The notes beneath the pieces were generated by a model, which was not told where the DNA came from, made no database searches, and saw only the letters and a list, made by a program, of their open reading frames with translations. From Bdellovibrio sp. (lineage in GTDB: Bacteria > Myxococcota > SpSt-1050), in NCBI GenBank assembly GCA_020725805.1, contig DYEF01000023.1, forward strand, positions 20,783 to 84,782: DNA of 64,000 bases, in the 5' to 3' direction. Every line of letters begins with the position of its first letter. Position 1 is the first letter of the stretch. The position numbers and the translations under genes are program-made. Of this stretch, positions 16,545 to 60,363 are shown piece after piece.

Positions 16545-16553
16545 AAAATACTC

Positions 16554-18689
16554 CTATCTTACTTCATAATTCGAACTGTCAAGTATATGCCCTGACGCAT
16601 CGATCAGTTCGAGTGTATGCCGGCCCTTCTCGATACCGAGCATATAGACGGTGTCGTGACTTTCGACCTTTCTGCTGTTACTCAGCAAAATACAGTCTCT
16701 GCAATTCGTATAGACATAAAGCAGTTGCTGTGAAACCGGTATAGCCGGATCCAGCGCAATAACTGTGCCGTCGGGAGGATAGATAATCCTCGGGATATTC
16801 CCGGTATCTACAGGTATTTCATCTCCTGACGGCTCTGTCCCTTCTATAAAATATTCATCTCTTACAGGTTCATACGCCGGTTTGAAAACTATCCGTTTTT
16901 TAATCACTCCGTAAGGAGTCAGAGGCGGCTTTGAGCCGGTCTTTTTGTGTAATTCCTTCATCAGTGCGAACCAGATCTGCGAAGCCCCGTGCGAACCCGA
17001 GACATTATGCATAGGCTCCCCCGAAAAATTTCCTGTCCAGACCCCGACGGTATATTCAGACGAGAATCCTACACACCAGTTATCCCTCATATCCTTGCTC
17101 GTCCCTGTCTTTACTGCCGAATAAAAAGGGGTAGAGAGCGTGTTCTCAAGATCGAAGGTGAGTGAACGTGCATCCCTGTCAGAGAGAATGCTCTGGATAA
17201 TATAAACGGCCTTTTCATCCAAGACCCTCTTTTCCTCCGCCATTTCCTTCTTTGAAATTCTCAGATTCTTATATAATCCTCCGTTTGCAAGAATCATATA
17301 CGCCCTCACGAGTTCGAAGAGTGAGACATCCAGACTGCCAAGGGCAAGCGATTCTCCGTAATAGTCTTCTATCTCATCGGACTTTTCAGGCTGAAAACCG
17401 AGACCCTTCAGATGTCCGGTATAATTTTCGACACCCGCAATCATAATGCTCTTTACTGCGGGGATGTTAAGTGATGAGGCAAGTGCGGTCCTGACAGATA
17501 CATATCCCTTGTACGTCCTGTCATAATTCTGAGGGGAATAGACAACCCCCTTCTTTCCGATAAAGAGCGGAAAATCCTCGATAATGCTCGCCGCAGTCAG
17601 AAGTCTCTGTTCAAGGAGATACTCATATAAAAACGGCTTTAAGGTAGAACCCGCCTGTCTTTTTGCCTTTACACCGTCTACATACTTTCCGGACGAGAGT
17701 TCGAAGGAATTCGGGATATATGCCAGTATCTCTCCAGTCCTGTTTTCGGCAACGAGCAGCGCCGCATCATTCAGATTCTTTCCCTTGAGTACAGATACGA
17801 ATGACCTCGTAATCTCAAGTGCTGTTTTCTGAATCTCTTTATCGATCGTCGTTACAACCGGAGATTTGTGGTTTCTGAGCAGCCTTTCTGAAAGGACAGG
17901 GAGATAATCTGCCGGTTTCGGGATATAATATCTTTCGGGGAGTTTCGATATTATTTTTTCAATCTCGTTTTCAGAGATGTTCAATCCTAAATTGCCGTTG
18001 TTTCTAAGGGCTGCCTTTACCAGCTCTTCCCGGCTCACCGAAGGTCTCTTAATGAGTGAGAGTAAAATCAGTGACTCGGTCTCGGTCAGATATTCAGGTG
18101 ATTTACCGAAAAGTCCCCATGCAGCTGTGTATATACCCGAAATCTCCCCTTTTACAGGAACGGTATTGATATAAGCCTCGAGGATTTCACTCTTACTCCA
18201 TCTCAAATCAATTATAACAGCGTAATAAATCTCCTTTATCTTTCTCAGTACGACATTCTCCTGACCAAGTCCGTAATAATTTCTCACAAACTGCATATTG
18301 ATAGTGCTTGCCCCGCGCATCCTTCCCCTCAGAACAAAATCCCTTAATGAGGAAATGACGGATACAACATCAATACCGCCGTGAGAATAAAATCTCTTAT
18401 CCTCGGACCTAATCAGAAGATTCAGAAAACGGCTGTTTACTTCCCGCAGTCTTACATAACCTGCTCTTCTGAGATTAAAATCTGTCCTTACAAATGAGAG
18501 GGGATAGAGATTTCTGTCCAGAACGACCCCGTCCGAAAGCCTGAAATATCCGTACCTGAATTTATTATAATCCGGGAAAGTCAGTAAAGAACGAACGAAT
18601 AAGAGCAGCAAAAATAATAAGGCAACACAGAAAACCCATATCAGTTTACCTCTTTTCAGTCTCCCTGCTCTCCTTTCCATATCAATCAA
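16554..18689 (-). CDS. pbpC: penicillin-binding protein 1C (glycosyltransferase GT51 + transpeptidase)
   Basis: N-terminal TM; GT51 motifs EDKRFYSHGGID and RKIKE; transpeptidase motifs STLKP (SxxK) and KTGTS (KTG). Confidence 0.85.
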   Translation of the reverse strand: MIDMERRAGRLKRGKLIWVFCVALLFLLLLFVRSLLTFPDYNKFRYGYFRLSDGVVLDRNLYPLSFVRTDFNLRRAGYVRLREVNSRFLNLLIRSEDKRFYSHGGIDVVSVISSLRDFVLRGRMRGASTINMQFVRNYYGLGQENVVLRKIKEIYYAVIIDLRWSKSEILEAYINTVPVKGEISGIYTAAWGLFGKSPEYLTETESLILLSLIKRPSVSREELVKAALRNNGNLGLNISENEIEKIISKLPERYYIPKPADYLPVLSERLLRNHKSPVVTTIDKEIQKTALEITRSFVSVLKGKNLNDAALLVAENRTGEILAYIPNSFELSSGKYVDGVKAKRQAGSTLKPFLYEYLLEQRLLTAASIIEDFPLFIGKKGVVYSPQNYDRTYKGYVSVRTALASSLNIPAVKSIMIAGVENYTGHLKGLGFQPEKSDEIEDYYGESLALGSLDVSLFELVRAYMILANGGLYKNLRISKKEMAEEKRVLDEKAVYIIQSILSDRDARSLTFDLENTLSTPFYSAVKTGTSKDMRDNWCVGFSSEYTVGVWTGNFSGEPMHNVSGSHGASQIWFALMKELHKKTGSKPPLTPYGVIKKRIVFKPAYEPVRDEYFIEGTEPSGDEIPVDTGNIPRIIYPPDGTVIALDPAIPVSQQLLYVYTNCRDCILLSNSRKVESHDTVYMLGIEKGRHTLELIDASGHILDSSNYEVR

Positions 18690-23783: not shown

Positions 23784-24143
23784 CTATCTGATGTATTTTT
23801 CGGGCTCTTTATCAAAATGAGGTTTGCAGCCCTCGCAGCAGAAATAATAGTATTTCCCTTTATACTCGGAGTAAGTGGTATCTTTTGTTATTTTAAATTT
23901 TTCCTTTGTCACAGGGCAAACAGCCTCTGTACTTTCTGCCTGCTTCTTGTTGAATCCAATAGATGGTTCTTCCGATTTTTTCTTCTCTTCCTGTTTTGTG
24001 AGCTGATGATGTTTTTCCGATTTCTTCTCGCTTTTTACTGCAGTATTATTTTGATGTTCTGATTCTTTACAATCATCAGCAAATAGTATGGCAGAGAATC
24101 CAAAAAGAAAAAACATCAAAGAAAAAGCAAATAAATTTCTCAT
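23784..24143 (-). CDS. secreted YHS-domain-like metal-binding protein
   Basis: Signal peptide; C-terminal CPVTKEKF...YYYFCCEGCKPHF matches the YHS/TRASH-type signature. GGAGG RBS. The gene is AT-rich relative to its flanks. Confidence 0.55.
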   Translation of the reverse strand: MRNLFAFSLMFFLFGFSAILFADDCKESEHQNNTAVKSEKKSEKHHQLTKQEEKKKSEEPSIGFNKKQAESTEAVCPVTKEKFKITKDTTYSEYKGKYYYFCCEGCKPHFDKEPEKYIR

Positions 24144-24188
24144 AAATACCTCCGGATGTTATTATGATGACAATCTATTACATTGGAT

Positions 24189-25061
24189 TCATCTTCTCAT
24201 CTCTAAAATACCTATTTTATATACATTATTTACTCCCGTAAAGGAAATCTTAATGTCATTGATTTTGAAACCCGAACCACATAAGATGCTGCTCCAGTCA
24301 GAAAGGGCGATATACTTCTCTCCAAGTCCCAGTCTGCTTGATTTTAAAATACTCACATATTCATCATAGTAAAAGTTGTTTAGAATCTGTTCTCTATGTC
24401 TGGTGTCAGTCATAGATCTTACTGTGTCGAAGACATCTTTATATAGAAGGGTTGCCGAGATATTTCTGAGTCTTGCATCTCTTATCATTTCAAGATTATG
24501 GTCAACCTCAATAATTATAAACAGCTTTGGGTTGAGATGATATATTTTACTAATTATTTTTAATTTATCACGCATTCTTAAATGATGAAGAGAAAGAGAT
24601 GACAAAACGATATCTGGTCTTTCCGGTAATGTTTTGACATCTAATTTACTTAGATTTGCTTTAATCGGGGTTACACCGCAATAGCTAAAACGAGAAAGAT
24701 TTATTTTAAGTTGTTTCAGGGCTGTATCTGAATAATCTATCCCGGTGATTTTAAGAGTGATATCCGGTTGTTTATGAATATTTTCAAGTACTCTTTTCCA
24801 CATAAGTCCTTCACCAATTCCAAGGTCAAGTATATTTAATCTGTGATGCTGGTTGATCAGTGTATTAATTTTTTGATAGACGAAGTAATGAGTCTCTTTA
24901 AGAATCACGGAATTGGCAAAGAGGAGATAGGCATTTCTTGTCCGGGGATTTATATATTTTTGTCTTAAATTAAACTCTTTTTTTCCCAATATTCTCTGAT
25001 AGACGCGGTCTATGTCTTCCTTAGAAAGTATGGACAGGCATTCTGTAAAATTATATCTCAT
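24189..25061 (-). CDS. class I SAM-dependent methyltransferase (YrrT-like position in a methionine-to-cysteine operon)
   Basis: SAM motif I ILDLGIGEG. Its start overlaps the upstream lyase stop by 11 nt. About 34 percent GC. Confidence 0.7.
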   Translation of the reverse strand: MRYNFTECLSILSKEDIDRVYQRILGKKEFNLRQKYINPRTRNAYLLFANSVILKETHYFVYQKINTLINQHHRLNILDLGIGEGLMWKRVLENIHKQPDITLKITGIDYSDTALKQLKINLSRFSYCGVTPIKANLSKLDVKTLPERPDIVLSSLSLHHLRMRDKLKIISKIYHLNPKLFIIIEVDHNLEMIRDARLRNISATLLYKDVFDTVRSMTDTRHREQILNNFYYDEYVSILKSSRLGLGEKYIALSDWSSILCGSGFKINDIKISFTGVNNVYKIGILEMRR

Positions 25062-26208
25062 AGTTTAATCTGTTCCTCATAGATAGGCTGATTGCCTTTG
25101 ATAAATCATCGATTATATCTTCGGCATTTTCAATACCAGTTGATAGTCTCAAAAGATTGTCCGTTATTCCCCTTTTTTCTCTTTCTTCATAGGATAGAGA
25201 TGCGTGAGTCATTTTAGATGGTATACAAATTAGTGATTCGATACCTCCTAGACTCTCTGCATTTTTTATAATTTTGAGTGATTTCAGAAACATCTCTGTT
25301 TGAGCATAGTCGTTGCCAAACTCAAAACTAATCATTCCGCAAAAACCTGCCATCTGCCTCTTGTAGATTTCGTCGTTTTCTATGTCAGGAAAGTAAACTT
25401 TCTTTATGAACCTGTTGTTTTTTAAATAATTGTACACTTTTCTAGCATTTTCGAAGTGTCTCTCCATTCTGATAGAAAGCGTTTTTATTCCTCTGAGTGT
25501 AAGGAAACAGTCAAAAGGAGAGGGGATAGCTCCTGCGGCGTTCTGATAAAACTTGATTCTTTGATATATGTCTTCATTATTAGTTATTACTGCACCTCCT
25601 ACAACATCACTGTGACCATTGAGATATTTTGTACTGCTATGAACGACTATATCGGCACCGTGGTTTAATGGCCTCTGAAAATATGGGGTTGCAAAAGTGT
25701 TATCAACCACAAGAATAGTGTTACTTCTTTTTATAGAAGCTATATCATTGATGCTGTATAATTTTAGCAGAGGGTTAGATGGTGTCTCTATCCATATTAT
25801 CTTTGTCCTTTCATTTAAAAGATCTTTTATTTCATAAGGGTCATTAGAAAACACATAGTTTGTTGTTATACCGTATTGTCGCAGTATCTTTTCAAATATT
25901 CTGTAGGTACCTCCATAAATATCCGATGAGGAAATAATCTCGTCTCCCGTTTTCAGGATACTAAGAACAGCCATAGTTGCGGCACATCCGGAGGAGAAGG
26001 CAAGAGCGAAATTGCCATCTTCAAGAGATGCCAGGACCTCCTCAAGTGTCCTCCTCGTTGGATTCTGTGTCCTTGAATATTCAAAACCTTTATGCCTTCC
26101 CGGAATCTCCTGATAAAATGTAGTAGAAAGATGGACAGGCGGTATTATTGCACCAGTTGAAAGGTCAGGCTCCTGCGAAATATGAATTGATCTTGTTTCA
26201 AATTTCAT
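25051..26208 (-). CDS. cystathionine gamma-lyase/gamma-synthase family PLP enzyme (MccB/MetC-like)
   Basis: PLP lysine motif HSSTKYLNGHSDVVGG; N-terminus MKFETRSIHISQE typical of the CGS/CGL family; AAGGAG RBS. Its start overlaps the upstream CBS-like stop. Confidence 0.85.
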   Translation of the reverse strand: MKFETRSIHISQEPDLSTGAIIPPVHLSTTFYQEIPGRHKGFEYSRTQNPTRRTLEEVLASLEDGNFALAFSSGCAATMAVLSILKTGDEIISSSDIYGGTYRIFEKILRQYGITTNYVFSNDPYEIKDLLNERTKIIWIETPSNPLLKLYSINDIASIKRSNTILVVDNTFATPYFQRPLNHGADIVVHSSTKYLNGHSDVVGGAVITNNEDIYQRIKFYQNAAGAIPSPFDCFLTLRGIKTLSIRMERHFENARKVYNYLKNNRFIKKVYFPDIENDEIYKRQMAGFCGMISFEFGNDYAQTEMFLKSLKIIKNAESLGGIESLICIPSKMTHASLSYEEREKRGITDNLLRLSTGIENAEDIIDDLSKAISLSMRNRLNYEI

Positions 26209-27559
26209 TTTTTATGCTCCTTCTGAGTAAAAAATTAATCAGATCAGATTTTGTAATGATATTGGAAGGTATTCCGTTCTTAAGAATAATGACGGCATTA
26301 GAGGATTTTGACAATACATTTCTGATGTCGTCGATCGAGGCAGATTCATCAAAGAGAGGTAGTGGAGGCCCCATAACTTCACTGACTCTGGCAATAGAGA
26401 CAATATTTTTGTTTTTGAAAGAGTGTAGTAACCCCTCTTCTGTCAGATTCCCGATGATTTTCTTTTTTTCTGTTACGGGTAGTTGAGAGATACCGTATTT
26501 ATTCATTAGATTAATGGCATCGGTGATATTCTGTTCTGCTTCAACTGTTATTAGGTTTGGACCAATCATATTTAGTTCGTTTAATATAGAGGCCGCATTG
26601 ATTGGTTCTCTGCTGGTTAAAAATCCATTTTCTGTCATCCATTCATCGGAATAGAACCTGGATATATAGTTCCTTCCGGTGTCAGGTAGAATAACAACGA
26701 TATTTTCCTCTTTGTTTTCCCTTTTAACGTATTTAAGAGCCGCGGCAAGGGCTGTGCCGGAAGAACCTCCTGCCAGTATTCCCTCCTCTTTTGCAAGCCT
26801 TCTCGCGGTTATAAATGATTCTTCGTCAGTGACTCTGATAAATTCGTTTATTATCTGTGCATTTAGTGTAGTTGGCACAAAATCCTCTCCTATTCCCTCG
26901 ACCTTATATGATTTTGGGTTATCTCCAGAGAGGACAGAGCCGGATGGGTCAGCAGCAATAATGTAGAGATGAGGTATTTTCTCTTTGAGATATAAGCCTG
27001 TCCCAGAAATTGTCCCACCGGTTCCAATGCCGGCGACAAAGACATCAATTTTCCCCTCCATATCGGAATATATTTCCCTGCCGGTCGTTTTGTAATGGGC
27101 GTTTGGGTTGTCAAGGTTTTTAAATTGTGAAGGGCGAAAGGAATGTGGAATATTATTCGCAAGCCTGTCGGCGTAGTTATTATAATTGTCCGGTGAATCC
27201 GGTGATTCGTTTGGTACAACAACGACTTCTGCTCCATACGCCCTGAGAATGTTTATTTTTTCTGTGCTCATCTTTTCGGGGACGATAAATATACATCTGT
27301 AACCCTTTATTGCACATACAAGTGCAAGACCAATTCCTGTATTTCCGGCGGTTGCTTCAATAATTGTGCTTTTGGGTTGCAGGATCCCTTTTCTTTCAGC
27401 TGACTCTAACATTTCGAGAGCGATTCTGTCTTTTACACTTCCGCCCGGATTGAACATCTCACACTTAACGAATATTCGGGATTTTATCCCGGCTGAGATC
27501 TTCTTTAGCTCTATTAAGGGGGTATTACCAATTGATTCAAGAATAGATTTATAAACCAC
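26198..27559 (-). CDS. cystathionine beta-synthase-like protein: cysteine-synthase fold plus C-terminal tandem CBS domains (MccA-like)
   Basis: GTG start with AAGGAG RBS. N-terminus MVYKSILESIGNTPLIELKKI, PLP lysine in SVKDR, ATAGNTGIGLA, and a C-terminal 130 aa with two CBS-domain-like repeats. Confidence 0.85.
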   Translation of the reverse strand: MVYKSILESIGNTPLIELKKISAGIKSRIFVKCEMFNPGGSVKDRIALEMLESAERKGILQPKSTIIEATAGNTGIGLALVCAIKGYRCIFIVPEKMSTEKINILRAYGAEVVVVPNESPDSPDNYNNYADRLANNIPHSFRPSQFKNLDNPNAHYKTTGREIYSDMEGKIDVFVAGIGTGGTISGTGLYLKEKIPHLYIIAADPSGSVLSGDNPKSYKVEGIGEDFVPTTLNAQIINEFIRVTDEESFITARRLAKEEGILAGGSSGTALAAALKYVKRENKEENIVVILPDTGRNYISRFYSDEWMTENGFLTSREPINAASILNELNMIGPNLITVEAEQNITDAINLMNKYGISQLPVTEKKKIIGNLTEEGLLHSFKNKNIVSIARVSEVMGPPLPLFDESASIDDIRNVLSKSSNAVIILKNGIPSNIITKSDLINFLLRRSIKNEI

Positions 27560-54212: not shown

Positions 54213-54246
54213 TTGACAGTATTTTAGTATCTGCTAAAATACTAAA
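54213..54246 (+). promoter_or_regulatory. putative arsR promoter (TTGACA-16-TAAAAT) overlapped by an 8-8 inverted repeat TTTAGTAT-N8-ATACTAAA; implies a leaderless or very short-leader arsR mRNA
   Basis: TTGACA at 54213-54218 and TAAAAT at 54235-54240. The inverted repeat lies at 54223-54230 and 54239-54246. The arsR ATG is at 54248. Confidence 0.35.
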
Positions 54247-54247
54247 C

Positions 54248-54553
54248 ATGTTCGGGGACGACAACATCAGCAAACTCGACGATGCAAAAAGAGTGGCAAA
54301 GATACTCGATGCCCTCTCGTCTCCTGTTAGGTTACTTATTGTCTGCTCCCTTATTGATGGTGAGAAGAACGTAAGCGAACTTATTGAGGAGATTGGGACA
54401 ACTATGGGAAATATCTCCCAGCACCTGCGGATTCTTGAAAATAATTCTATACTGGAGAGCAGAAAAGAGGGGAATAAGGTCTTCTATTCCATCAGGAATA
54501 ATAAGATAGTCAAATTTATTAAGGAGATTAAACAGTTGTGCGAAGAGAGGTAG
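54248..54553 (+). CDS. ArsR/SmtB-family transcriptional regulator
   Basis: Winged-HTH block LSSPVRLLIVCSLIDGEKNVSELIEEIGTTMGNISQHLRILENNSILESRKEGNKVFY. Confidence 0.8.
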   Translation: MFGDDNISKLDDAKRVAKILDALSSPVRLLIVCSLIDGEKNVSELIEEIGTTMGNISQHLRILENNSILESRKEGNKVFYSIRNNKIVKFIKEIKQLCEER

Positions 54554-54587
54554 TGTATACATTCTATAAAATATCGGGAGAAATTTT

Positions 54588-56165
54588 ATGAGAAATATCC
54601 TTATATCGCTTCTCTTTTTTGGTCTTTTTCTGGCAATATCTTATGGAATTCTTAAAAGTAACGAGATTGAAAAACCTGATATTGTAAAGTTAAAAGAGAA
54701 GTATTTAAAGCGGGAGATGAAGAAGAAGGCCGACCATTCAAAATTTGAGGTCTTAAATAAGGATTTCTCTGAACCGCGAGAAATCACACAGGCCTGTGAG
54801 ACATGCCATAACCTGACTGCACAGGAGATTATGAATTCGAATCACTATAACTGGGAACGGGTCGGTTATATGAAAGGCAGAGGGATAGTCTATATCGGCA
54901 AGAAGAATGCAATCAACAATTATTGTATTGCCGCACACGGCAACGAGAAGAGCTGTGCGAAGTGCCACGTAGGACTCGGGCTCGATAAGAGCGGAAATAT
55001 TATTACTGACCCTACAAATATCGATTGTATGGTCTGCCACGACAATACCGAGACATATATGAAGGCATCCGAGAAAGGTGGAGAGCCAGTGAGGACTCTG
55101 GATTTCAAAAATATTGCACAGAATGTCGGAAAGCCAAAGAGAAGCAACTGCGGTGTCTGTCACTTCTTCGGCGGCGGGGGAAATAATGTCAAACACGGAG
55201 ATTTAGAGAGTGCACAGTTTGAACCTTTAAGAGACGTGGATGTTCATATGGCGGTTGACGGAGTAAATATGCAGTGCACCGATTGTCACAAAACAAAGGA
55301 GCACAATATATTTGGCAAACTATATTCAATCTGCTCAATGAACAGGGAGAGGACGCGGTGTGAGGACTGTCATACCGAGACCCCGCACAGGGAGGATATC
55401 ATTAACGAACACGGTCTCAAGGTCTCCTGTCAGGCCTGCCATATCCCTGTTTATGCCAAGGTAAACTCTACAAAACTTTACTGGGACTGGTCAACAGCAG
55501 GAAAACTAAAAAACGGTGAACCCTATGTAGAGGAAGACGAGAATGGAAATCATAAGTATATGTCAATAAAAGGATCTTTTGTCTGGGGAAAAAATCTTAA
55601 GCCCGATTATGTCTGGTTCAACGGGACCGCCTCGCATTATCTTCTGGGAGATAAGATCAAGGACCCCAAATCCCCTCTCATCCTCAACCCTCTCTACGGC
55701 AGCTATGAAGACGAGGAGTCAAAGATTATACCTGTCAAGATTCACACAGCAAAGCAACCATACGACCCCGAAAATAATATTCTTATTATGCCAAAACTTT
55801 ATTCTGAGGAGAAAGGGGCAGGGGCATTCTGGAAGGACTTTGACTGGATAAAGGCCTCTGAAATCGGTATGAAAGAGCAAGGATTGCCATTCAGCGGGAA
55901 GATAGATTTTATCGAGACAAAGATGTACTGGCCTGTCAATCATATGGTATCTACGAAGGACAAATCTGTAAGGTGTGAGGAGTGTCATACACGAAATGGT
56001 TCAAGGATTGCAAACCTGAGGGATTTTTATATACCCGGAAGGGATTATTCGCCTCTTGTTGACGGGATGGGGAAACTCCTGATTATCTTTGCAATCTTTG
56101 GCGTTATTGCACACGGGGGAGGAAGGATTGCCGCCAGTTATATCCGAAGGAGGAAGATGAGATGA
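54588..56165 (+). CDS. octaheme c-type cytochrome (8 CxxCH), N-terminal signal/anchor
   Basis: Eight haem-binding motifs are read directly: CETCH, CAKCH, CMVCH, CGVCH, CTDCH, CEDCH, CQACH, CEECH. GGGAG RBS. Confidence 0.85.
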   Translation: MRNILISLLFFGLFLAISYGILKSNEIEKPDIVKLKEKYLKREMKKKADHSKFEVLNKDFSEPREITQACETCHNLTAQEIMNSNHYNWERVGYMKGRGIVYIGKKNAINNYCIAAHGNEKSCAKCHVGLGLDKSGNIITDPTNIDCMVCHDNTETYMKASEKGGEPVRTLDFKNIAQNVGKPKRSNCGVCHFFGGGGNNVKHGDLESAQFEPLRDVDVHMAVDGVNMQCTDCHKTKEHNIFGKLYSICSMNRERTRCEDCHTETPHREDIINEHGLKVSCQACHIPVYAKVNSTKLYWDWSTAGKLKNGEPYVEEDENGNHKYMSIKGSFVWGKNLKPDYVWFNGTASHYLLGDKIKDPKSPLILNPLYGSYEDEESKIIPVKIHTAKQPYDPENNILIMPKLYSEEKGAGAFWKDFDWIKASEIGMKEQGLPFSGKIDFIETKMYWPVNHMVSTKDKSVRCEECHTRNGSRIANLRDFYIPGRDYSPLVDGMGKLLIIFAIFGVIAHGGGRIAASYIRRRKMR

Positions 56166-56815
56166 GTAAGAAATATGTGTTGATCTATAAAGGATTTGAG
56201 AGATTCTGGCACTGGATGCAGGCACTTCTGATCTTCTTTCTGATGTTTACAGGCTTTGAGATTCACGGCTCATATTCATTTCTTGGATTCAAGGAGGCGG
56301 TTACATATCATAACATTGCGGCATACCTCTTTCTGGCACTGACCGTCTTTGCAATCTTCTGGCATTTTACAACTGGAGAATATAAGCAATATATACCTAC
56401 CTTTAAAAACATCAAAGCACAGCTGGATTATTATCTCCTTGGAATATTCAGAAACGCACCTCACCCTACCAGAAAGACACTGCTCAGCAAGCTCAATCCA
56501 CTGCAGAGGCTTACATATTTTGGGCTTAAGATTATTCTGATTCCCGCAAGCATACTCTCGGGAATTCTCTATATGCTCTACAGATACCCTTCCCGCTACG
56601 GAATAGAGGCGATAAATATTGGTTCGCTCGAAGTTATTGCAATAATACATACGGCTGCGGCTCTTCTTCTTGTGACTTTTGTGATCGTCCATCTATATCT
56701 TATCACTACTGGTACGACAATTACATCAAATCTCAGGGCTATGCTGACAGGTTACGAGGAGCTCGAGGAGGAAGAGCATAAAACGAACGAGACAGAAAGC
56801 AAAAGTGAGGTGTAA
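56162..56815 (+). CDS. di-haem b-type cytochrome membrane subunit (Ni/Fe-hydrogenase/FdnI cytochrome b family)
   Basis: Four TM helices with conserved His (RFWHW, IHG, YHNIA, IIHTAAALL, VHLYL). Start overlaps the cytochrome c stop as ATGA. Confidence 0.75.
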   Translation: MSKKYVLIYKGFERFWHWMQALLIFFLMFTGFEIHGSYSFLGFKEAVTYHNIAAYLFLALTVFAIFWHFTTGEYKQYIPTFKNIKAQLDYYLLGIFRNAPHPTRKTLLSKLNPLQRLTYFGLKIILIPASILSGILYMLYRYPSRYGIEAINIGSLEVIAIIHTAAALLLVTFVIVHLYLITTGTTITSNLRAMLTGYEELEEEEHKTNETESKSEV

Positions 56816-56817
56816 TT

Positions 56818-57336
56818 ATGGAAGAGAACAAGTATATGAATCCGTATCTTGCCGGGTTTTTACTCGGACTCCTGCTTCTGTCAACCATTTACATAACAGG
56901 GAGAGGTCTCGGGGCGAGCGGTGCTATAAAGAGTGCGGTTGTTGCCGGCGTGGAGGTAGTTGCTCCATCTCATACTTCAAACACAAAGTTCTATCAGGAG
57001 TATTCAAAGGAACACGAAGGGACAAGCCCTCTTATGAACTGGCTGGTATTCGAGGTAGTAGGTGTTCTAATCGGCGCATTTCTCTCGGGGCTGATATCCG
57101 GAAGGCTCGACCTGAAATTCGAAAAAGGTCCGAATGCAACCACACGTATGAGATTCTGGGGTGCACTGATTGGCGGAATGCTATGGGGAATCGGTTCACA
57201 GCTCGGAAGGGGTTGTACGAGCGGTGCCGCACTCTCCGGTATGGCGGTGATGTCAACTGGCGGACTCCTTGTAATGATATCCATCTTCGGCGGGGCTTAC
57301 GGCTTTGCATATTTTTTACGAAAATTCTGGATATAG
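56818..57336 (+). CDS. YeeE/YedE-family sulfur-compound transporter, half-size subunit
   Basis: Sulphur-transport family signature GSQLGRGCTSGAALSGMAV and GRGLGASGA. GAGGTG RBS. Confidence 0.75.
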   Translation: MEENKYMNPYLAGFLLGLLLLSTIYITGRGLGASGAIKSAVVAGVEVVAPSHTSNTKFYQEYSKEHEGTSPLMNWLVFEVVGVLIGAFLSGLISGRLDLKFEKGPNATTRMRFWGALIGGMLWGIGSQLGRGCTSGAALSGMAVMSTGGLLVMISIFGGAYGFAYFLRKFWI

Positions 57337-57348
57337 GGAGGGATTACT

Positions 57349-58542
57349 ATGGGACCACTTGTACCTGATATAATATCAACCAACCTCAATTATATAGTAG
57401 CACTCATCATAGGAATCTTCTTCGGAATGATTCTGGAGCAGGCGGGATTCTCGACCTCAAAGAAGCTCGTCGGGCTCTTCTACGGATACGATTTTACAGT
57501 TCTCAGAGTCTTTTTTACTGCCGGTGTCACTGCAATGGTGGGTGTTTTGGGTCTATTGCACTTCGGCCTTCTGGATATTAATCTGATTTATATAAATCCC
57601 ACATACATCTGGTCAGCAATAGTAGGCGGACTTATTATGGGACTCGGATTTGTCCTCGGAGGTTTCTGTCCCGGCACGAGCGTCTGTGCGGCAGCCATCG
57701 GGAAGATCGACGCAATGATATTCATCGGTGGTGCATTTATAGGTGTTTTGATATTTGCCGAGGGATATCCACTCTTCGAGTCGCTCTACAAGGCATCATA
57801 TATCGGAAATCCGCGGATATCAGAGACGCTCGGAATATCTCCGAATCTATTTGCATTTCTGCTGACATTTATTGCACTTGTGGCATTTTACGTCGTAACT
57901 CTTATCGAAAAGAAGGTAAATAAGGAAGAGATAAGATTTCTGAATCTCAACAGGACCAATGCAATTATTGCAGGTGGTGGTATTCTACTGCTTATCTTCT
58001 CCGTTACTTTTGTTGAGAAAAAGTCTACACTTTTAAGAATGATTGAGGATGAGAATCTGGTCAGAAATTATCCCTTAAAAGAGATGACTGTCGATGAACT
58101 TGCATTCAGGCTTCTTGATAAAAACGAGGAGAGGCTTCAGATAATCGATTTCAGAAACGAGAAGTCCTACTCCGAATGGAGTCTTCCGCGTTCGACTCTC
58201 TTTACAAGGGAGAATCTCTTCGAGAAGGAACCTGCACAGTTTCTGAGATACAGGCATACCGACAATCTCTTTGTCGCCGAAGATGAGCTTACGGAGCGCA
58301 AAATGGCTGTCCTTGCAAGCGAGATGGGATTTAAAAACATAAAAATCCTGAAAGGCGGGCTACAGAAATTCAGAAAAGATATTCTCGGATTTGAACCGAT
58401 TGCAGAGCCGAAGAGTCTGGATGAACAGTGGTTAAACCGCTTCAGGACCCGCGCCAAGGCGGAGATACCCGAACTTATCAGGAAGAACAAACCGGCAGGA
58501 CCGGTCAAGAAGAAACAGAAACGTTCACTCGGCGGTTGCTGA
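57349..58542 (+). CDS. YeeE/YedE-family transporter half fused to a C-terminal rhodanese-like domain
   Basis: GGFCPGTSVCAAAIG YeeE-type Cys motif and TM helices, then a soluble C-terminus (LQIIDFRNEKSYSEWSLPRS...) with rhodanese-like topology. GGGAGG RBS. Confidence 0.7.
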   Translation: MGPLVPDIISTNLNYIVALIIGIFFGMILEQAGFSTSKKLVGLFYGYDFTVLRVFFTAGVTAMVGVLGLLHFGLLDINLIYINPTYIWSAIVGGLIMGLGFVLGGFCPGTSVCAAAIGKIDAMIFIGGAFIGVLIFAEGYPLFESLYKASYIGNPRISETLGISPNLFAFLLTFIALVAFYVVTLIEKKVNKEEIRFLNLNRTNAIIAGGGILLLIFSVTFVEKKSTLLRMIEDENLVRNYPLKEMTVDELAFRLLDKNEERLQIIDFRNEKSYSEWSLPRSTLFTRENLFEKEPAQFLRYRHTDNLFVAEDELTERKMAVLASEMGFKNIKILKGGLQKFRKDILGFEPIAEPKSLDEQWLNRFRTRAKAEIPELIRKNKPAGPVKKKQKRSLGGC

Positions 58543-60168
58543 AGATTCTCTCTTTTTTACATTGATAACAATTGTGTGGGCGGCCATATCCCCGAGTCTC
58601 TGCCATTTTTCACTAAGAGCCGCAAGCAGGATTCCGACAAGAAAACTAAAGAATCCGTCAACAAGTTTTAAGAGATTTCTCACAAATGCCCTCTTAAATC
58701 CGCACACAAGAAGGTCTTCGCCAACGACTTTTATCCTGAGTAGCCATTTTCCGGGAGTATATCCGTATTTTCCCTCGGTATAACTGAAGAGAAGAAGGTA
58801 AATAACCGACCATATCGACGAATATAGAAAAACCAGTAAAACATCTTTAAAGAATTCAAGCGAATCCGGAAATTCACCAGAAAAAAATGTTTTAGATATA
58901 TATTCTCCCATTATTGCAAGCAACGGAATCAGATATATAATTATATCAATAATCTGTGACCAGGCCCTCTTCCAGATAGTTGCAAAATGTGCAGACTTAC
59001 TCCCATAATTGTAATTACTTACCCTGTATTTTTTCATCATAATTGTGAGAATCAGAGCAAGGACAATCTGTAATATATATGGTATTAACTGGATAAACAC
59101 AAAAAATCCGGGGAAGAGATATTTGGGGAACATAGACTTAAAAAATGAAAATTTTTTTGAACTCTCCCTACCGATCTCACTTGCTTTCACAATCTTTATT
59201 TCGGCTGGAAAATGTATATAGAAGAATAAAGGCTCTTTAAGCGCATTAGAGCCAATAACTGAGTAATAGAAACCAAAGACATTTTTCGTATCGACGGAAA
59301 AGAATTTTGACCATTTGTCGCCTTCTCTTATTAGTCCTGTAAATACAGATCGAAATCCATTAGTTTCCCAGTAAAAGATCGCTAACTTGCCTGCGATATT
59401 GACAATATGCCAATCATCTTTAACGACAGCTACTTTCTCCCAATTATTCTTAATGTCATCTTCTTCTCCTTTAGGAAATCCCTCACGATAGTAGATTGTA
59501 TCATCAATCTCTGTAAAGAGGTGAAGCTGTTCATTGATATTTAGTACTTTTATAGTCAGACACTTTGGGCAGTAGTCTGGTCTATCAGGATTTATAATTT
59601 CAAATTCATTTATTCTCTCCCATCCGTTATCTCCAAACCTTTTTATAATAAACATCCCTTTGTTATAATTGACTATCGCAGGTCTTCCGTTGAGAATAAA
59701 AGAGTTGTTAATATTCGCTATATTTTTCTCAGATATATATTCCCGGTATTCTCCATCGATTGTTAGGATGGCAGCGGCATCTTTTGAAATTAACCATAAC
59801 CCATTCTCATCAGATACCAGCTCTTCCCATATCCTGTTGAAGCCTTTATACTTCACCGGTTTATCCGGCTCAGATTCAGATATATACCAGAGCTCAGAAA
59901 TAGAACCGTTGTTATTCTTCTTGTCTATGCTCACTTTTATAAACCAGACCTTCTTATTAAAATATACTGGTGGTTTGAAATTAAACAATGGACCCTCTTT
60001 AATGGTTTCTGGGAGTTTTATGGCAGGTATGAAAGCCATAAAGGGTAAAACAAATTGCAGAATGAAGAAAACCCCACCCAGAATACCTGCAGTAAGTGTA
60101 AATTTCCTCTTTGCTTCCTCAGATATATATCCTCCGGCAGAAGGAGTCTTTTCCTGTATGCTGTCCAT
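58525..60168 (-). CDS. membrane protein with C-terminal RDD-family domain and large extracytoplasmic N-terminal region
   Basis: Start set at MDSIQEK (ATG 60168, GGAGG RBS). RDD-like block TPGKWLLRIKVVGEDLL with flanking TM helices. Confidence 0.6.
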   Translation of the reverse strand: MDSIQEKTPSAGGYISEEAKRKFTLTAGILGGVFFILQFVLPFMAFIPAIKLPETIKEGPLFNFKPPVYFNKKVWFIKVSIDKKNNNGSISELWYISESEPDKPVKYKGFNRIWEELVSDENGLWLISKDAAAILTIDGEYREYISEKNIANINNSFILNGRPAIVNYNKGMFIIKRFGDNGWERINEFEIINPDRPDYCPKCLTIKVLNINEQLHLFTEIDDTIYYREGFPKGEEDDIKNNWEKVAVVKDDWHIVNIAGKLAIFYWETNGFRSVFTGLIREGDKWSKFFSVDTKNVFGFYYSVIGSNALKEPLFFYIHFPAEIKIVKASEIGRESSKKFSFFKSMFPKYLFPGFFVFIQLIPYILQIVLALILTIMMKKYRVSNYNYGSKSAHFATIWKRAWSQIIDIIIYLIPLLAIMGEYISKTFFSGEFPDSLEFFKDVLLVFLYSSIWSVIYLLLFSYTEGKYGYTPGKWLLRIKVVGEDLLVCGFKRAFVRNLLKLVDGFFSFLVGILLAALSEKWQRLGDMAAHTIVINVKKRESSATAE

Positions 60169-60285
60169 CTGTAATCCTCCGTCTTTTGGGTAATAAAATA
60201 TCATTCTTTTACCTGCAAGACAAGCCCGAACTTATTGGAATACAGAAGAATAAGCTCGTAAAAAGATTTATTCAGTTATAAAGAT

Positions 60286-60363
<78 letters not shown>

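Follow-up and report, generated by a model that had tools for sequence, protein, structure and literature searches.

A conserved cluster of an Otr-family octaheme cytochrome c, a cytochrome b and a split YeeE channel with a candidate cysteine-tipped arm

An Otr-family octaheme cytochrome c, a membrane cytochrome b and two half-size YeeE proteins, the second of which is fused to a rhodanese-like domain, are encoded by a four-gene core that is a real, widely conserved cluster, beyond chance. In the stretch of Bdellovibrio sp. DNA analysed here (64,000 nt, referred to as the window) the core is preceded by an arsR gene. We propose, and on balance lean towards, a periplasmic reductase that draws on quinol, acts on sulfur of the tetrathionate or polysulfide type and would be joined to a cysteine relay leading from a periplasmic arm to the YeeE channel.

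Layout, conservation and regulation

All five open reading frames announced by the sequence-only reading were found on the plus strand: an ArsR/SmtB-family repressor of the BigR/SqrR type (54248..54553, 101 aa), the Otr-family octaheme cytochrome c (54588..56165, 525 aa), a PF01292-family cytochrome b with four helices (56162..56815, 217 aa), a PmpA-like YeeE/YedE half, here half A (56818..57336, 172 aa), and YeeE half B with its rhodanese-like domain (57349..58542, 397 aa). The genes for Otr and cytochrome b do share an ATGA start/stop overlap at 56162-56165. The other intergenic gaps, given earlier as 3 to 34 nt, measure 34, 2 and 12 nt, the smallest being 2 rather than 3 nt.

The genome sample was defined by Otr proteins that share 55% identity or more with that of the window. 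In this sample, all of the 71 loci that extend far enough downstream have Otr, cytochrome b, YeeE half A and YeeE half B-rhodanese in this order on one strand; the 10 incomplete loci every time end at a contig end. The YeeE halves accompany the cytochromes in every long-enough locus and are not merely adjacent in this genome. Loci carrying the core are labelled Ignavibacteria/Bacteroidota, Acidobacteriota, Chloroflexota, Kryptoniota, Chthonomonadia and Deltaproteobacteria. No other conserved neighbour genes were found around the core in these related loci, the flanks of which differ; searches for nitrogen-cycle genes and for selenium-specific genes such as selD and yedF conserved nearby were likewise negative. 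Farther out in the Otr family, beyond the sample of at least 55% identity, there may be Otr-cytochrome b pairs without the YeeE/rhodanese cassette.

The description of the operon as ArsR-controlled applies to the small lineage of the window only; other lineages have a MarR or MerR regulator upstream instead. The regulator is no conserved member of the unit, and the core consists of the other four genes. The MarR and MerR regulators of most lineages carry no specific sulfur indication. The window ArsR matches PF01022 and NF033788 (76.4 bits, cut-off 55), and its score against the BigR model, 67.8 bits, is under the equivalog cut-off of 155. The closest PDB matches are BigR (3PQJ, E 2.2e-14) and SqrR (6O8K, E 1.7e-11). 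Only two cysteines are present, both retained in four ArsR orthologues: in the alignment Cys33 pairs with the cysteine of BigR and SqrR in helix alpha-2, and Cys98 with the C-terminal cysteine of SqrR. BigR and SqrR are persulfide sensors, and the window protein has both sensing cysteines.

A sequence resembling a strong promoter occupies 54213..54240 of the plus strand, with the -35 hexamer at position 54213 of the window: TTGACA and TAAAAT are separated by a 16-nt spacer, and the -10 element is extended by a TG. It fits 11 of 12 consensus positions, was the top site of the promoter scan across a 5-kb region and lies 8 nt upstream of the arsR start codon. Its spacer and -10 hexamer are overlapped by an inverted repeat, AGTATTTTAG-N6-CTAAAATACT (54218..54243), with 10-nt arms that are 100% complementary. 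We consider this palindrome a candidate ArsR operator; its overlap with the arsR promoter would imply autoregulation. Near-identical palindromes lie upstream of the ArsR genes in two other loci, L002 and L057, although the ArsR of L057 is merely 48% identical to that of the window.

The Otr cytochrome and its membrane partner

The octaheme scores 551.8 bits against TIGR04315 (cut-off 375) and gives an E value of 1.5e-119 with Shewanella Otr (1SP3); profile and alignment both place it clearly among the octaheme tetrathionate reductases (Otr). On the same matches the identities MccA and epsilon-Hao were rejected. The motif count agrees with the earlier claim of eight canonical CxxCH (residues 70, 123, 147, 188, 230, 258, 281 and 463), with neither CxxCK nor Cx15CH in the window Otr sequence, and all eight are invariant in 24 homologues. 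The segment GKKNAINNYC (residues 104-113; 54897..54926, plus strand) conserves the lysine and the cysteine of the Shewanella Otr active site: K105 aligns with Lys56 and C113 with Cys64, as counted along the 1SP3 chain, and the 24 homologues show no variation at G104, K105, N107, N110, N111 or C113. We take Lys56 to be the haem-2 ligand of the Shewanella enzyme, the roles of Lys56 and Cys64 reportedly going back to work of Mowat and colleagues from 2004.

The predicted architecture comprises an N-terminal signal sequence, the periplasmic eight-haem domain and a C-terminal transmembrane anchor at residues about 496-518 (56073..56141, plus strand), followed by a basic cytoplasmic tail. The hydrophobic core of the anchor covers residues 496-508, residues 509-525 contain on average 5.2 Lys plus Arg, and at least 98% of the 79 sequences compared have the same residue as the window protein at H509 and at R513, both in the anchor helix. 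In contrast, Shewanella Otr (443 aa in the 1SP3 chain) is without this C-terminal helix.

The cytochrome b scores 98.5 bits against PF01292, the family of the gamma subunits of hydrogenase, formate dehydrogenase and PhsC; its top NCBIfam match is PhsC (105 bits, under the cut-off of 204). Charge counts predict an N-in topology. Histidines are conserved at positions 17, 35, 50, 68, 101, 163 and 177, and His17, 50/68, 163 and 177 are arranged as one would expect if two b haems were bound. The protein is probably a di-haem, quinol-oxidising subunit. Its gene lies beside that of Otr in 81 of 81 loci (median gap -4 nt), and one natural Otr-cytochrome b fusion of 731 aa (P0031) has a coherent topology. 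This pairing, the start/stop overlap and the fusion favour the suggestion of the sequence-only reading that cytochrome b could couple Otr to quinol directly. A complex of Otr with cytochrome b, which the conserved C-terminal helix of Otr with H509 and R513 also favours, has likewise been deduced in genome papers.

The split YeeE channel and the rhodanese-like arm

Both YeeE halves match PF04143, half A at profile positions 175-309 and half B at 4-161. Half A, predicted from charge counts to be N-in and C-in, is the counterpart of the C-terminal half of complete YeeE/TsuA; it aligns to residues 236-326 of S. thermophila YeeE (6LEO), which places its only cysteine, the conserved Cys133, on the essential Cys293. 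The PmpB-like membrane part of half B (residues 1-222; 57349..58014, plus strand) combines the counterpart of the YeeE N-terminal half with two further helices, a fifth that resembles H7 and an additional sixth. It holds Cys107 and Cys113, of which C107 is shared by at least 98% of sequences; PmpB likewise matches the YeeE N-half and carries a cysteine at the Cys91 position. All four cysteines of the two halves are conserved and, judged by alignment, the pair keeps both of those known to be essential from the solved thiosulfate channel. Halves A and B probably form a heterodimer, an arrangement already proposed in print for PmpAB.

Half B is predicted to be N-out, with no net positive charge at its N-terminus and in loops 74-91 and 134-166, and a charge of +2.3 in loop 181-206. 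The N-terminus of S. thermophila YeeE is outside as well, and its helix H7 reverses the topology; with the one extra helix seen here, such a topology would lead to a periplasmic rhodanese arm. Family-averaged positive-inside charge counts also place the arm in the periplasm, the stand-alone Rhd-GGC homologues start with a basic n-region and a hydrophobic signal anchor, and the unfused YeeE_B stops after the fifth helix. From three independent lines, namely charge counts, homology to the YeeE topology and the stand-alone homologues, the domain is predicted to face the periplasm; for this, helix 6 (residues about 205-222) must truly span the bilayer. With a pLDDT below 50 in its membrane part, the AlphaFold model gives the topology no support.

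The C-terminal rhodanese-like domain read from the sequence is indeed present (residues about 240-346; 58066..58386, plus strand), with 29.7 bits against PF00581 (cut-off 22.2), a pLDDT of 82-92 in the AlphaFold model and similarity to single-domain rhodaneses in Foldseek (probability 1.00). It is, however, a pseudo-rhodanese without the catalytic cysteine: Ala310 occupies this position in the conserved loop F-x-A-x-D-E-x-x-E-R, and in the family alignment, where the region is weakly conserved overall, no conserved cysteine was found within the domain. The protein ends with a Lys/Arg-rich tail (residues 380-397; 58486..58539, plus strand) that is predicted to be disordered (pLDDT 29 at the last residues) and terminates in GGC-COOH. 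This terminus is present in 71 of 72 half B orthologues and is kept in tandem paralogues, in fused relatives with 26-37% identity in the region and in stand-alone 200-aa forms. Cys397, one of three cysteines in half B, is a candidate swinging-arm thiol; instead of carrying sulfur it might be structural, redox-regulatory or metal-binding.

The cassette is also found behind a second type of reductase. In 80 metagenome loci, unfused genes for YeeE_A, YeeE_B and Rhd-GGC sit after a PhsA/PsrA-like molybdoenzyme, an FeS subunit and an NrfD subunit. All 33 complete loci show one and the same gene order, a PsrA-like gene is found in 25 of the 27 cassette loci with room for one, and Otr or cytochrome b in none of the 80. 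Since one cassette occurs with either Otr or PhsABC/PsrABC-like enzymes, it serves two unrelated periplasmic reductases, which strengthens the earlier interpretation of the operon as a sulfur module. Known relatives of both reductase types cleave S-S bonds. Some of the Phs-type cassettes have a selenoprotein-subtype SQR close by.

Proposed mechanism, alternatives and known systems

The steps proposed here all build on sequence, synteny and predicted topology. Menaquinol would deliver electrons through cytochrome b to the Otr octaheme, held beside cytochrome b by its own C-terminal membrane helix, and the Lys-ligated active-site haem would cleave the S-S bond of an oxidised sulfur compound, most likely tetrathionate or another polythionate, possibly polysulfide-type sulfane sulfur. 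The extra membrane helix of half B would put the Cys-less rhodanese-fold domain and the flexible Lys-rich GGC tail in the periplasm. The terminal thiol could then act as a swinging arm that binds sulfur covalently, as Cys-S-S-SO3(-) or Cys-S-Sn(-), and either hands sulfur species to the reductase or collects them from it; a cysteine relay into the cell might run from C397 via C133 of half A to C107 of half B. In the lineage of the window, the BigR/SqrR-type ArsR would bind the palindrome over the promoter and probably let go of it upon a rise in cytoplasmic sulfane sulfur.

No carrier arm would be needed if Otr-cytochrome b made thiosulfate, the split YeeE imported it and a cytoplasmic rhodanese processed it. 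YeeE/TsuA is a proven thiosulfate importer, of which both essential cysteines are present; Otr converts tetrathionate to thiosulfate in vitro, where the Shewanella enzyme also reduces nitrite and hydroxylamine, and the four-gene synteny is strict. A cytoplasmic sulfurtransferase acting on imported thiosulfate was nevertheless rejected, since the active-site cysteine is absent and three lines of evidence put the domain in the periplasm. Moreover, the scores against curated TsuA models are far under their cut-offs (42.9 against 400 and 25.3 against 645), the universally conserved Lys-rich GGC tail would be left unexplained, and the Phs/Psr-like enzymes followed by the same cassette yield sulfide with or without sulfite, not thiosulfate. 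We regard this arm-free reading as unlikely.

It seems improbable that Otr is a quinol-fed, alternative ammonifying reductase or a detoxifier for nitrite or hydroxylamine, with YeeE and rhodanese in an unrelated or supporting role. This would suit the in vitro activities of the Shewanella enzyme, and several genome papers assign Otr to nitrite reduction, but the strictly co-inherited partner genes belong to sulfur-handling families, the other partner of the cassette is a Phs/Psr-type sulfur reductase, the window ArsR is of the persulfide-sensor type and conserved nitrogen-cycle neighbours are absent.

Still less probable is an oxidative direction, in which Otr would oxidise thiosulfate or carrier-bound sulfur and pass electrons via cytochrome b to quinone, with a SoxY-like arm as in SoxXA-type coupling. 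Otr interconverts tetrathionate and thiosulfate, the GGC end of half B resembles the SoxY carrier motif, and otr is found beside soxY/soxZ variants in sulfur-oxidising symbionts. However, thiosulfate electrons would have to move uphill, as oxidation to tetrathionate (about +0.2 V) is unable to reduce menaquinone (about -0.07 V) without energy input; the hosts are mostly anaerobic or fermentative Ignavibacteria-type organisms, in which Otr is read as a terminal reductase, and the alternative Phs/Psr-like partner is a known reductase family. Least probable of all is a selenium or tellurium oxyanion handled by a YedE-like channel and thiol arm: half B weakly matches YedE selenium-transporter models (30 and 28 bits), Otr faintly matches the selenite/tellurite cytochromes ExtN and ExtO, the SQR mentioned above is a selenoprotein subtype and Srr, a selenite reductase resembling PsrA, is accompanied by rhodanese-like accessory proteins, but the YedE, ExtN and ExtO models have curated cut-offs of 200-350 bits, far above these scores, the sensors with which ArsR aligns are those of sulfane sulfur, and selD, yedF or other selenium genes are not conserved nearby.

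The sulfur-reducing module with its cysteine relay, which we prefer, is undescribed in part. Otr paired with cytochrome b (PMC4911364, PMC7509429) and Phs with PmpAB and a sulfurtransferase (PMC9324843) had been noted before, whereas the combination of Otr-cytochrome b with the YeeE pair, and the GGC arm, have not previously been noted in the literature. Classically, YeeE is partnered by the cytoplasmic, TusA-like YeeD; the window operon is without such a gene. By analogy, the proposed Cys397 swinging arm would be comparable to SoxY and Sud. For SoxYZ and SoxT1A there is a published proposal that a periplasmic carrier passes sulfur on to an importer resembling YeeE, and it is in lucinid symbionts that otr adjoins the soxY/soxZ variants. 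The cysteine-tipped arm that the channel appears to extend into the periplasm gives a testable idea of the cellular role of Otr, a poorly understood enzyme.

Gene order and conservation of the octaheme unit

All five genes claimed by the sequence-only reading, which had proposed an ArsR-controlled operon with an octaheme cytochrome c, a cytochrome b and a split YeeE as a sulfur-oxyanion module, were found in the ORF listing as co-directional genes on the plus strand: arsR (54248-54553), the cytochrome c (54588-56165; 525 aa), the cytochrome b (56162-56815; 217 aa), YeeE half A (56818-57336; 172 aa) and YeeE half B with its rhodanese-like C-terminus (57349-58542; 397 aa). The ATGA overlap of the two cytochrome genes is as described, and the remaining gaps amount to 34, 2 and 12 nt, the minimum of 3 nt given before being too high. 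On the whole, that reading was right in what it observed and in part in how it interpreted it.

The octaheme cytochrome is, judged by its sequence, unambiguously a member of the octaheme tetrathionate reductase (Otr) family. It covers the full TIGR04315 profile (positions 1-440) with 551.8 bits against a cut-off of 375, a family assignment that had been left to profile HMMs. The sole solved relative is Shewanella Otr (PDB 1SP3; E 1.5e-119), with about half of the aligned residues identical by eye; an Otr structure has reportedly been available since 2004. Exactly eight CxxCH motifs were counted, in agreement with the earlier claim, with no CX15CH and no CxxCK or other variant, and all eight are invariant in 24 homologues. 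An identity as MccA or epsilon-Hao was ruled out because CX15CH and CxxCK are absent and the TIGR04315 match is decisive. By counting along the alignment, Lys56 and Cys64 of 1SP3 have their counterparts in K105 and C113, and the latter two are likewise invariant in the 24 homologues. We take Lys56 to be the ligand of the active-site haem, with Cys64 nearby; in the window protein, K105 is a putative haem ligand and tetrathionate reductase a putative activity. A C-terminal membrane helix is predicted at residues ~496-518, followed by a basic cytoplasmic tail. The nearest labelled relatives stem from MAGs of Myxococcota and Deltaproteobacteria.

The cytochrome b matches PF01292 with 98.5 bits (gathering score 30.1) and has four hydrophobic cores in an N-in topology. 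PhsC (NF011582) is its closest named relative, at 105.3 bits against an equivalog cut-off of 204; by this measure it is not a PhsC. Searching the PDB sequences with it gave no significant match, FdnI (1KQF) reaching only E ~1. The ligands expected in PF01292 are four His residues, one each in helices 1 and 2 and a pair spaced by ~14 residues in helix 4, and the conserved His17, His50/68, His163 and His177 are arranged as expected for two b haems, an arrangement read along the sequence rather than from a structure-level alignment. Altogether seven His residues are conserved, three of them beyond the need of two haems (His35, one of His50/His68, and His101). In the membrane anchor of Otr (window 56073-56141), His509 and Arg513 are matched in at least 98% of the sequences. 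Taken together, these residues hint at an extra haem or a contribution of the anchor helix to a quinol site. In one database protein of 731 aa (P0031), encoded on a 3.6-kb metagenome contig, Otr and cytochrome b form a single polypeptide. At its junction, a basic linker connects the membrane anchor with the N-terminus of the cytochrome b in a topologically coherent way; since the protein is known from one short contig, the fusion could also be a sequencing error or a frameshift artefact at the ATGA overlap.

In another MAG carrying a close relative (Otr 79% identical), the same five genes are embedded in entirely different flanks. A survey of one genome per GTDB species yielded 80 loci with an Otr of 55-78% identity, assigned by their record titles to Ignavibacteria/Bacteroidota, Acidobacteriota, Chloroflexota, Kryptoniota, Chthonomonadia and Deltaproteobacteria. 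The cytochrome b adjoins Otr in 81/81 loci. Otr, cytochrome b, half A and half B with its rhodanese-like domain follow each other completely, in the same order and on the same strand, in 71 of the 81, and the remaining ten all end at contig ends less than 2 kb past Otr. The YeeE halves are not chance neighbours of the cytochromes, as they accompany them in every one of the 71 sufficiently long loci. Median gaps within this core are -4, -4 and 15 nt, and no other conserved neighbour emerged from clustering all flanking ORFs. Among Ignavibacteria and further uncultured anaerobes the module occurs commonly; matches to the Otr search patterns came from at least 589 species-level genomes.

The slot directly upstream of otr, on the same strand, is occupied by a transcription factor of varying family: MarR in 22 loci, MerR with a Cys-rich C-terminus in 23, and ArsR in only three plus the window. 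The conserved unit is for this reason one of four genes with a swappable regulator. ArsR was rejected as a member of it, most lineages having MarR or MerR instead, and control by ArsR does not hold as a general trait. An example of the Cys-rich MerR C-terminus reads ...PCWSIINCSELDRENC...PCWSFEHKNNVCSGKDCSRCDVY... (loci L003-L081 of the survey, immediately upstream of otr), and this MerR seems itself to be a sensor, of redox state or of metal/sulfur.

For the ArsR of the window, PDB sequence comparison returned BigR (3PQJ) and SqrR (6O8K) as best structural relatives. Its only cysteines, Cys33 and Cys98, align with the BigR/SqrR sensing pair, of which one Cys belongs to helix alpha-2 and the other to the C-terminal helix; four ArsR orthologues retain both. 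With this Cys pair it is a putative sulfane-sulfur sensor of the BigR/SqrR type that stays below the BigR equivalog cut-off (67.8 against 155 bits). Literature on "TsoR", the NCBIfam name of a related ArsR model, contained nothing relevant in our search. The start of the operon as delimited before, position 54213, coincides with the -35 hexamer of a promoter-like site, TTGACA-16-TAAAAT with an extended -10 TG on the plus strand (11/12 positions match), which is the best one of the region. Its spacer and -10 hexamer are covered by a perfect 10-nt inverted repeat, AGTATTTTAG-N6-CTAAAATACT (54218-54243). This palindrome is conserved where ArsR is present, including one locus (L057) despite an ArsR of only 48% identity. 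The stretch between arsR and otr contains a further, imperfect inverted repeat, ATAAAATATC / GAAATTTTAT (90% complementary; window 54566-54589), which overlaps the ribosome-binding region of otr. With AT-rich arms similar to the promoter palindrome, it may act as another operator or at the level of translation.

The split channel and its GGC-tailed extension

Both YeeE halves match the Sulf_transp profile PF04143, half A with 76.1 bits at positions 175-309 and half B with 60.1 bits at positions 4-161. Half A corresponds to residues 236-326 of S. thermophila YeeE, its only cysteine, Cys133, falling on the essential Cys293, and Cys107 of half B sits in a GG-x-C-P-G motif after helix 3. According to Li et al., PmpA represents the C-half and PmpB the N-half of YeeE, with the PmpB-type Cys placed at the position of Cys91. 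Equivalents of the essential Cys91 and Cys293 are present in the window proteins, and that of Cys22 is absent. The two halves together contain four cysteines, all conserved, among them a second channel Cys, C113, in half B. They are of the PmpA/PmpB type, being adjacent half-size genes with a conserved Cys each, of which A is the C-half and B the N-half. The curated cut-offs for TsuA were not reached (NF052577, 42.9 against 400; NF041049, 25.3 against 645), and the window YeeE consists of two genes compared with the single nine-helix TsuA polypeptide of ~330-350 aa. No gene for a TusA-like YeeD/TsuB was found in the operon or among the conserved neighbours. At ~4.5 kb downstream of its Otr module, one surveyed locus of the Melioribacteraceae (L055) has a second half A/half B pair (16395-17488; 52% and 39% identical).

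The C-terminal domain of half B is rhodanese-like by profile (PF00581; 29.7 bits against 22.2) and by AlphaFold model (pLDDT 82-92), for which Foldseek returned single-domain rhodaneses. A catalytic Cys of the C-x4-R-[ST] type is absent from this domain, Ala310 standing in its place, and no Cys is conserved in half B residues 225-390 across 71 orthologues. The acidic loop F-x-A-x-D-E-x-x-E-R around Ala310 is conserved. Across the same orthologues, the membrane part is highly conserved and the rhodanese region is not, whereas the Lys/Arg-rich C-terminus ends in x-GGC-COOH in 71 of 72. This GGC end persists even in fused relatives that are only 26-37% identical in the rhodanese/tail region. The tail is predicted to be disordered (AlphaFold). 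A distant fused relative of 404 aa (P0297) combines a canonical loop, YCRTQRR, with a GGC-type end; because it has both, the catalytic Cys appears to have been lost after the tail was acquired. Pfam and NCBIfam scans returned no SoxY model for this protein, and the fold of the domain is that of a rhodanese.

Several lines of evidence bear on the side of the membrane on which this extension resides; the AlphaFold model of the half B membrane part is not among them, its pLDDT being below 50. Family-averaged charge counts gave no net positive charge for the half B N-terminus and the loops 74-91 and 134-166, and +2.3 for loop 181-206, which yields six helices with N-out and C-out ends for half B, and N-in and C-in ends for half A. 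In solved YeeE, the chain starts outside, and its second half is inverted by helix H7; half B comprises the N-half, an H7-like helix and one extra helix that returns the chain to the outside. Finally, an exhaustive HMMER search of representative sequences retrieved stand-alone relatives of ~200 aa with a basic n-region, a hydrophobic signal anchor, the same domain, a poly-Lys stretch and GGC. At their loci, the unfused half B stops after the fifth helix, and the fusion therefore joins a C-in end to an N-in start. With charge counts, solved YeeE topology and stand-alone relatives in agreement, the rhodanese domain and its tail are predicted to be periplasmic.

Half B is followed by a convergent minus-strand gene of 559 aa with a C-terminal RDD domain (PF06271; window 58525-60204) that overlaps its last 18 nt, so that the codons of the GGC tail are shared with the 3' end of another gene. 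Just downstream of this RDD-family gene lies the only tRNA gene in the window, a tRNA-Pro with anticodon GGG (60286-60362, minus strand). Elsewhere, GC content drops to 0.344 at window 24001-26000, compared with 0.40-0.49 over most of the rest and 0.385 at 58-60 kb. Three minus-strand ORFs occupy this low-GC stretch (24189-27559), which may be horizontally acquired or a region of the surface-polysaccharide type.

The same cassette beside Phs/Psr-like molybdoenzymes

Searching metagenome contigs for the stand-alone tail protein with a four-sequence alignment retrieved 80 further loci (L082-L161). Directly before the tail protein comes a half A/half B pair that shares 48-62% identity with the pair of the window; half B was found in 62 of the 63 loci with room for it upstream, and half A in 51 of 53. 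Further upstream on the same strand are genes for a Tat-signal molybdopterin enzyme, an FeS subunit and an NrfD/PsrC membrane subunit. The molybdopterin enzyme has PhsA as its best match (460 bits against an equivalog cut-off of 694), and a PhsA/PsrA-like gene occurs in 25 of the 27 loci long enough to include it. All 33 complete loci share the order A-B-C, half A, half B, Rhd-GGC, and neither Otr nor the cytochrome b was detected in any of the 80. The YeeE pair with its GGC arm is a cassette that serves two unrelated kinds of periplasmic quinol-linked reductase.

Some of these loci hold additional genes. In 51, signal-anchored pseudo-rhodanese paralogues form a tandem pair, both ending in poly-Lys-x-GGC. 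A type III sulfide:quinone reductase belonging to the selenoprotein subtype (NF049943, 652 bits) is encoded in nine of the loci, a lipoprotein-like rhodanese whose Cys loop is genuine in ten, and a DUF1641 protein in eight.

Characterised relatives of both kinds of reductase split S-S bonds, Otr that of tetrathionate and Phs/Psr those of thiosulfate or polysulfide. A cassette common to two kinds of enzyme with such S-S-cleaving relatives is our strongest argument that Otr acts here on sulfur rather than nitrogen; the strict partnership with a sulfur channel and the use of the cassette by Phs/Psr-type reductases both argue for such a role. Genome papers give Otr a tetrathionate or a nitrite role more or less interchangeably.

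Proposed mechanism, alternatives and known systems

On balance, we lean towards a mechanism in which a quinol-driven Otr-cytochrome b S-S reductase cooperates with a periplasmic arm thiol and the YeeE channel. We infer the following electron path: the cytochrome b would oxidise menaquinol and pass electrons through its two b haems to the haem chain of Otr, which would be kept alongside by its own membrane helix. At the Lys-ligated haem, the S-S bond of tetrathionate, a polythionate or sulfane sulfur would be reduced. The arm thiol, presumably reactive and anion-attracting through its flanking lysines, would bear sulfur covalently, as a mixed persulfide or thiosulfonate, and move it between the reductase and the channel's outer vestibule. 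This vestibule would contain Cys133, the counterpart of Cys293 on the periplasmic side, with Cys107 further in. Transport would probably be inward, and in the lineage of the window the imported sulfane sulfur would inactivate the repressor of the BigR/SqrR type. Precedents by analogy may be seen in the SoxY arm, the pairing of Sud with Psr, the hand-over proposed from SoxYZ to SoxT1A, and otr beside soxY/soxZ.

Simple import of the product with a cytoplasmic rhodanese, as the sequence-only reading had modelled it, is an unlikely account of the module. A cytoplasmic sulfurtransferase fits neither a domain whose catalytic Cys is missing nor its predicted periplasmic location; the tail would be left unexplained, and the partnership with Phs/Psr speaks against it as well. 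Less probable again is that Otr turns over nitrite or hydroxylamine here, for which in vitro data on the Shewanella enzyme are the sole basis, the shared cassette pointing to sulfur. Operation of the module in the oxidative direction has a slightly smaller chance still, being thermodynamically unfavourable with menaquinone. We regard a role in selenium or tellurium metabolism, suggested solely by sub-threshold model matches, as the least probable of these.

The S-S reductase reading also allows a bolder, distinctly tentative version, in which the substrate of Otr and of the Phs/Psr-like enzymes would not be a free ion but a sulfur adduct on the membrane-tethered polybasic GGC arm. If this were true, the module would represent a carrier-based counterpart to the Sox system that works reductively. 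Its arm would also feed a trans-membrane cysteine relay C397 -> C133 -> C107, and a single complex would unite respiration with sulfur import and cytoplasmic sulfane-sulfur signalling. The "swinging-arm thiol" principle of SoxY/DsrC would then extend to a membrane-tethered periplasmic carrier. The Cys-less rhodanese with its Lys-rich GGC tail also suggests what the cargo of PmpAB-type half-transporters may be. As the module is so common, it could be an under-counted route by which sediments, aquifers and bioreactors turn over tetrathionate, polythionate or polysulfide.

In the literature searched, which covered few subscription-journal papers, we found neither a link of Otr with a YeeE/rhodanese cassette nor a description of a rhodanese domain that lacks its Cys and bears a Lys-rich GGC tail. 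All components fall into known families, and for this reason nothing here appears categorically new; what seems new is the fixed four-gene architecture, the use of one cassette by two reductases and the predicted periplasmic thiol arm.

Among known systems, Otr of Shewanella oneidensis (SO_4144) belongs to the same family and has eight CxxCH motifs, and the equivalents of its Lys56 and Cys64 are kept in the window protein. It is, however, soluble and periplasmic and lacks the C-terminal membrane helix of the window Otr; it also has neither a cytochrome b nor a YeeE/rhodanese cassette, its annotated neighbour SO_4142 being a monohaem cytochrome c. Pairs of Otr and cytochrome b(561) occur in Thermosulfurimonas dismutans (TDIS_1882/1883) and an Ignavibacteriae MAG, where an adjacent multi-helix cytochrome b was proposed to anchor Otr and link it to the quinone pool; these papers make no mention of YeeE halves, a rhodanese-like domain or a GGC tail (PMC4911364, PMC7509429). 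For the second kind of reductase, phsABC followed by pmpA/pmpB and a sulfurtransferase gene is on record for Ca. Electryonea clarkiae and Caldithrix abyssi (PMC9324843). This is the same accessory cassette, two half-size YeeE genes and then a rhodanese-like protein, downstream of a periplasmic quinol-linked sulfur reductase. There, on the other hand, the reductase is a molybdopterin enzyme with FeS and NrfD subunits, whereas the window has a haem enzyme with a cytochrome b; the rhodanese is a separate, often duplicated gene, whereas that of the window is fused to the PmpB-like half; and a GGC tail is not described (PMC9324843).

Known PmpAB halves are quoted with ~130 aa, shorter than those of the window (172 aa, and ~190 aa plus the extension). 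The YeeE(TsuA)-YeeD(TsuB) system (6LEO/8J4C) shares the Sulf_transp fold family and requires a partner cysteine protein; this partner is cytoplasmic and TusA-like, while the partner thiol in the window is predicted on the periplasmic side. ArsR-type sulfane-sulfur repressors of operons with PmpAB-type genes comprise BigR (Xylella/Agrobacterium), SqrR (Rhodobacter) and PigS (Serratia), the regulon of the latter being what we take to be a case of such control. These operons encode persulfide dioxygenase or rhodanese detoxification enzymes, that of the window a respiratory cytochrome. An ArsR-type repressor beside split YeeE genes is a pairing already known from the PmpAB reference.

The putative arm itself resembles that of SoxYZ, which works with SoxXA and carries sulfur adducts on a periplasmic, flexible Gly-Gly-Cys C-terminus to a c-type haem enzyme. 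Hand-over of sulfur from SoxYZ to the YeeE-like importer SoxT1A has been proposed, and otr is linked to soxY/soxZ variants in lucinid symbionts. The motif of the SoxY arm is GGCGG. The two are not homologous: SoxY has an Ig-like fold, the window domain a rhodanese fold with a polybasic tail ending exactly at the Cys, and the SoxYZ system is oxidative, whereas that of the window is probably reductive and quinol-linked. A rhodanese fold is found in Sud of Wolinella succinogenes, a periplasmic protein whose single thiol passes sulfane sulfur to the quinol-linked reductase PsrABC. Sud, though, is soluble and uses a canonical active-site Cys; the window protein has no such Cys, carries its thiol on the C-terminal tail and is membrane-tethered to the channel.
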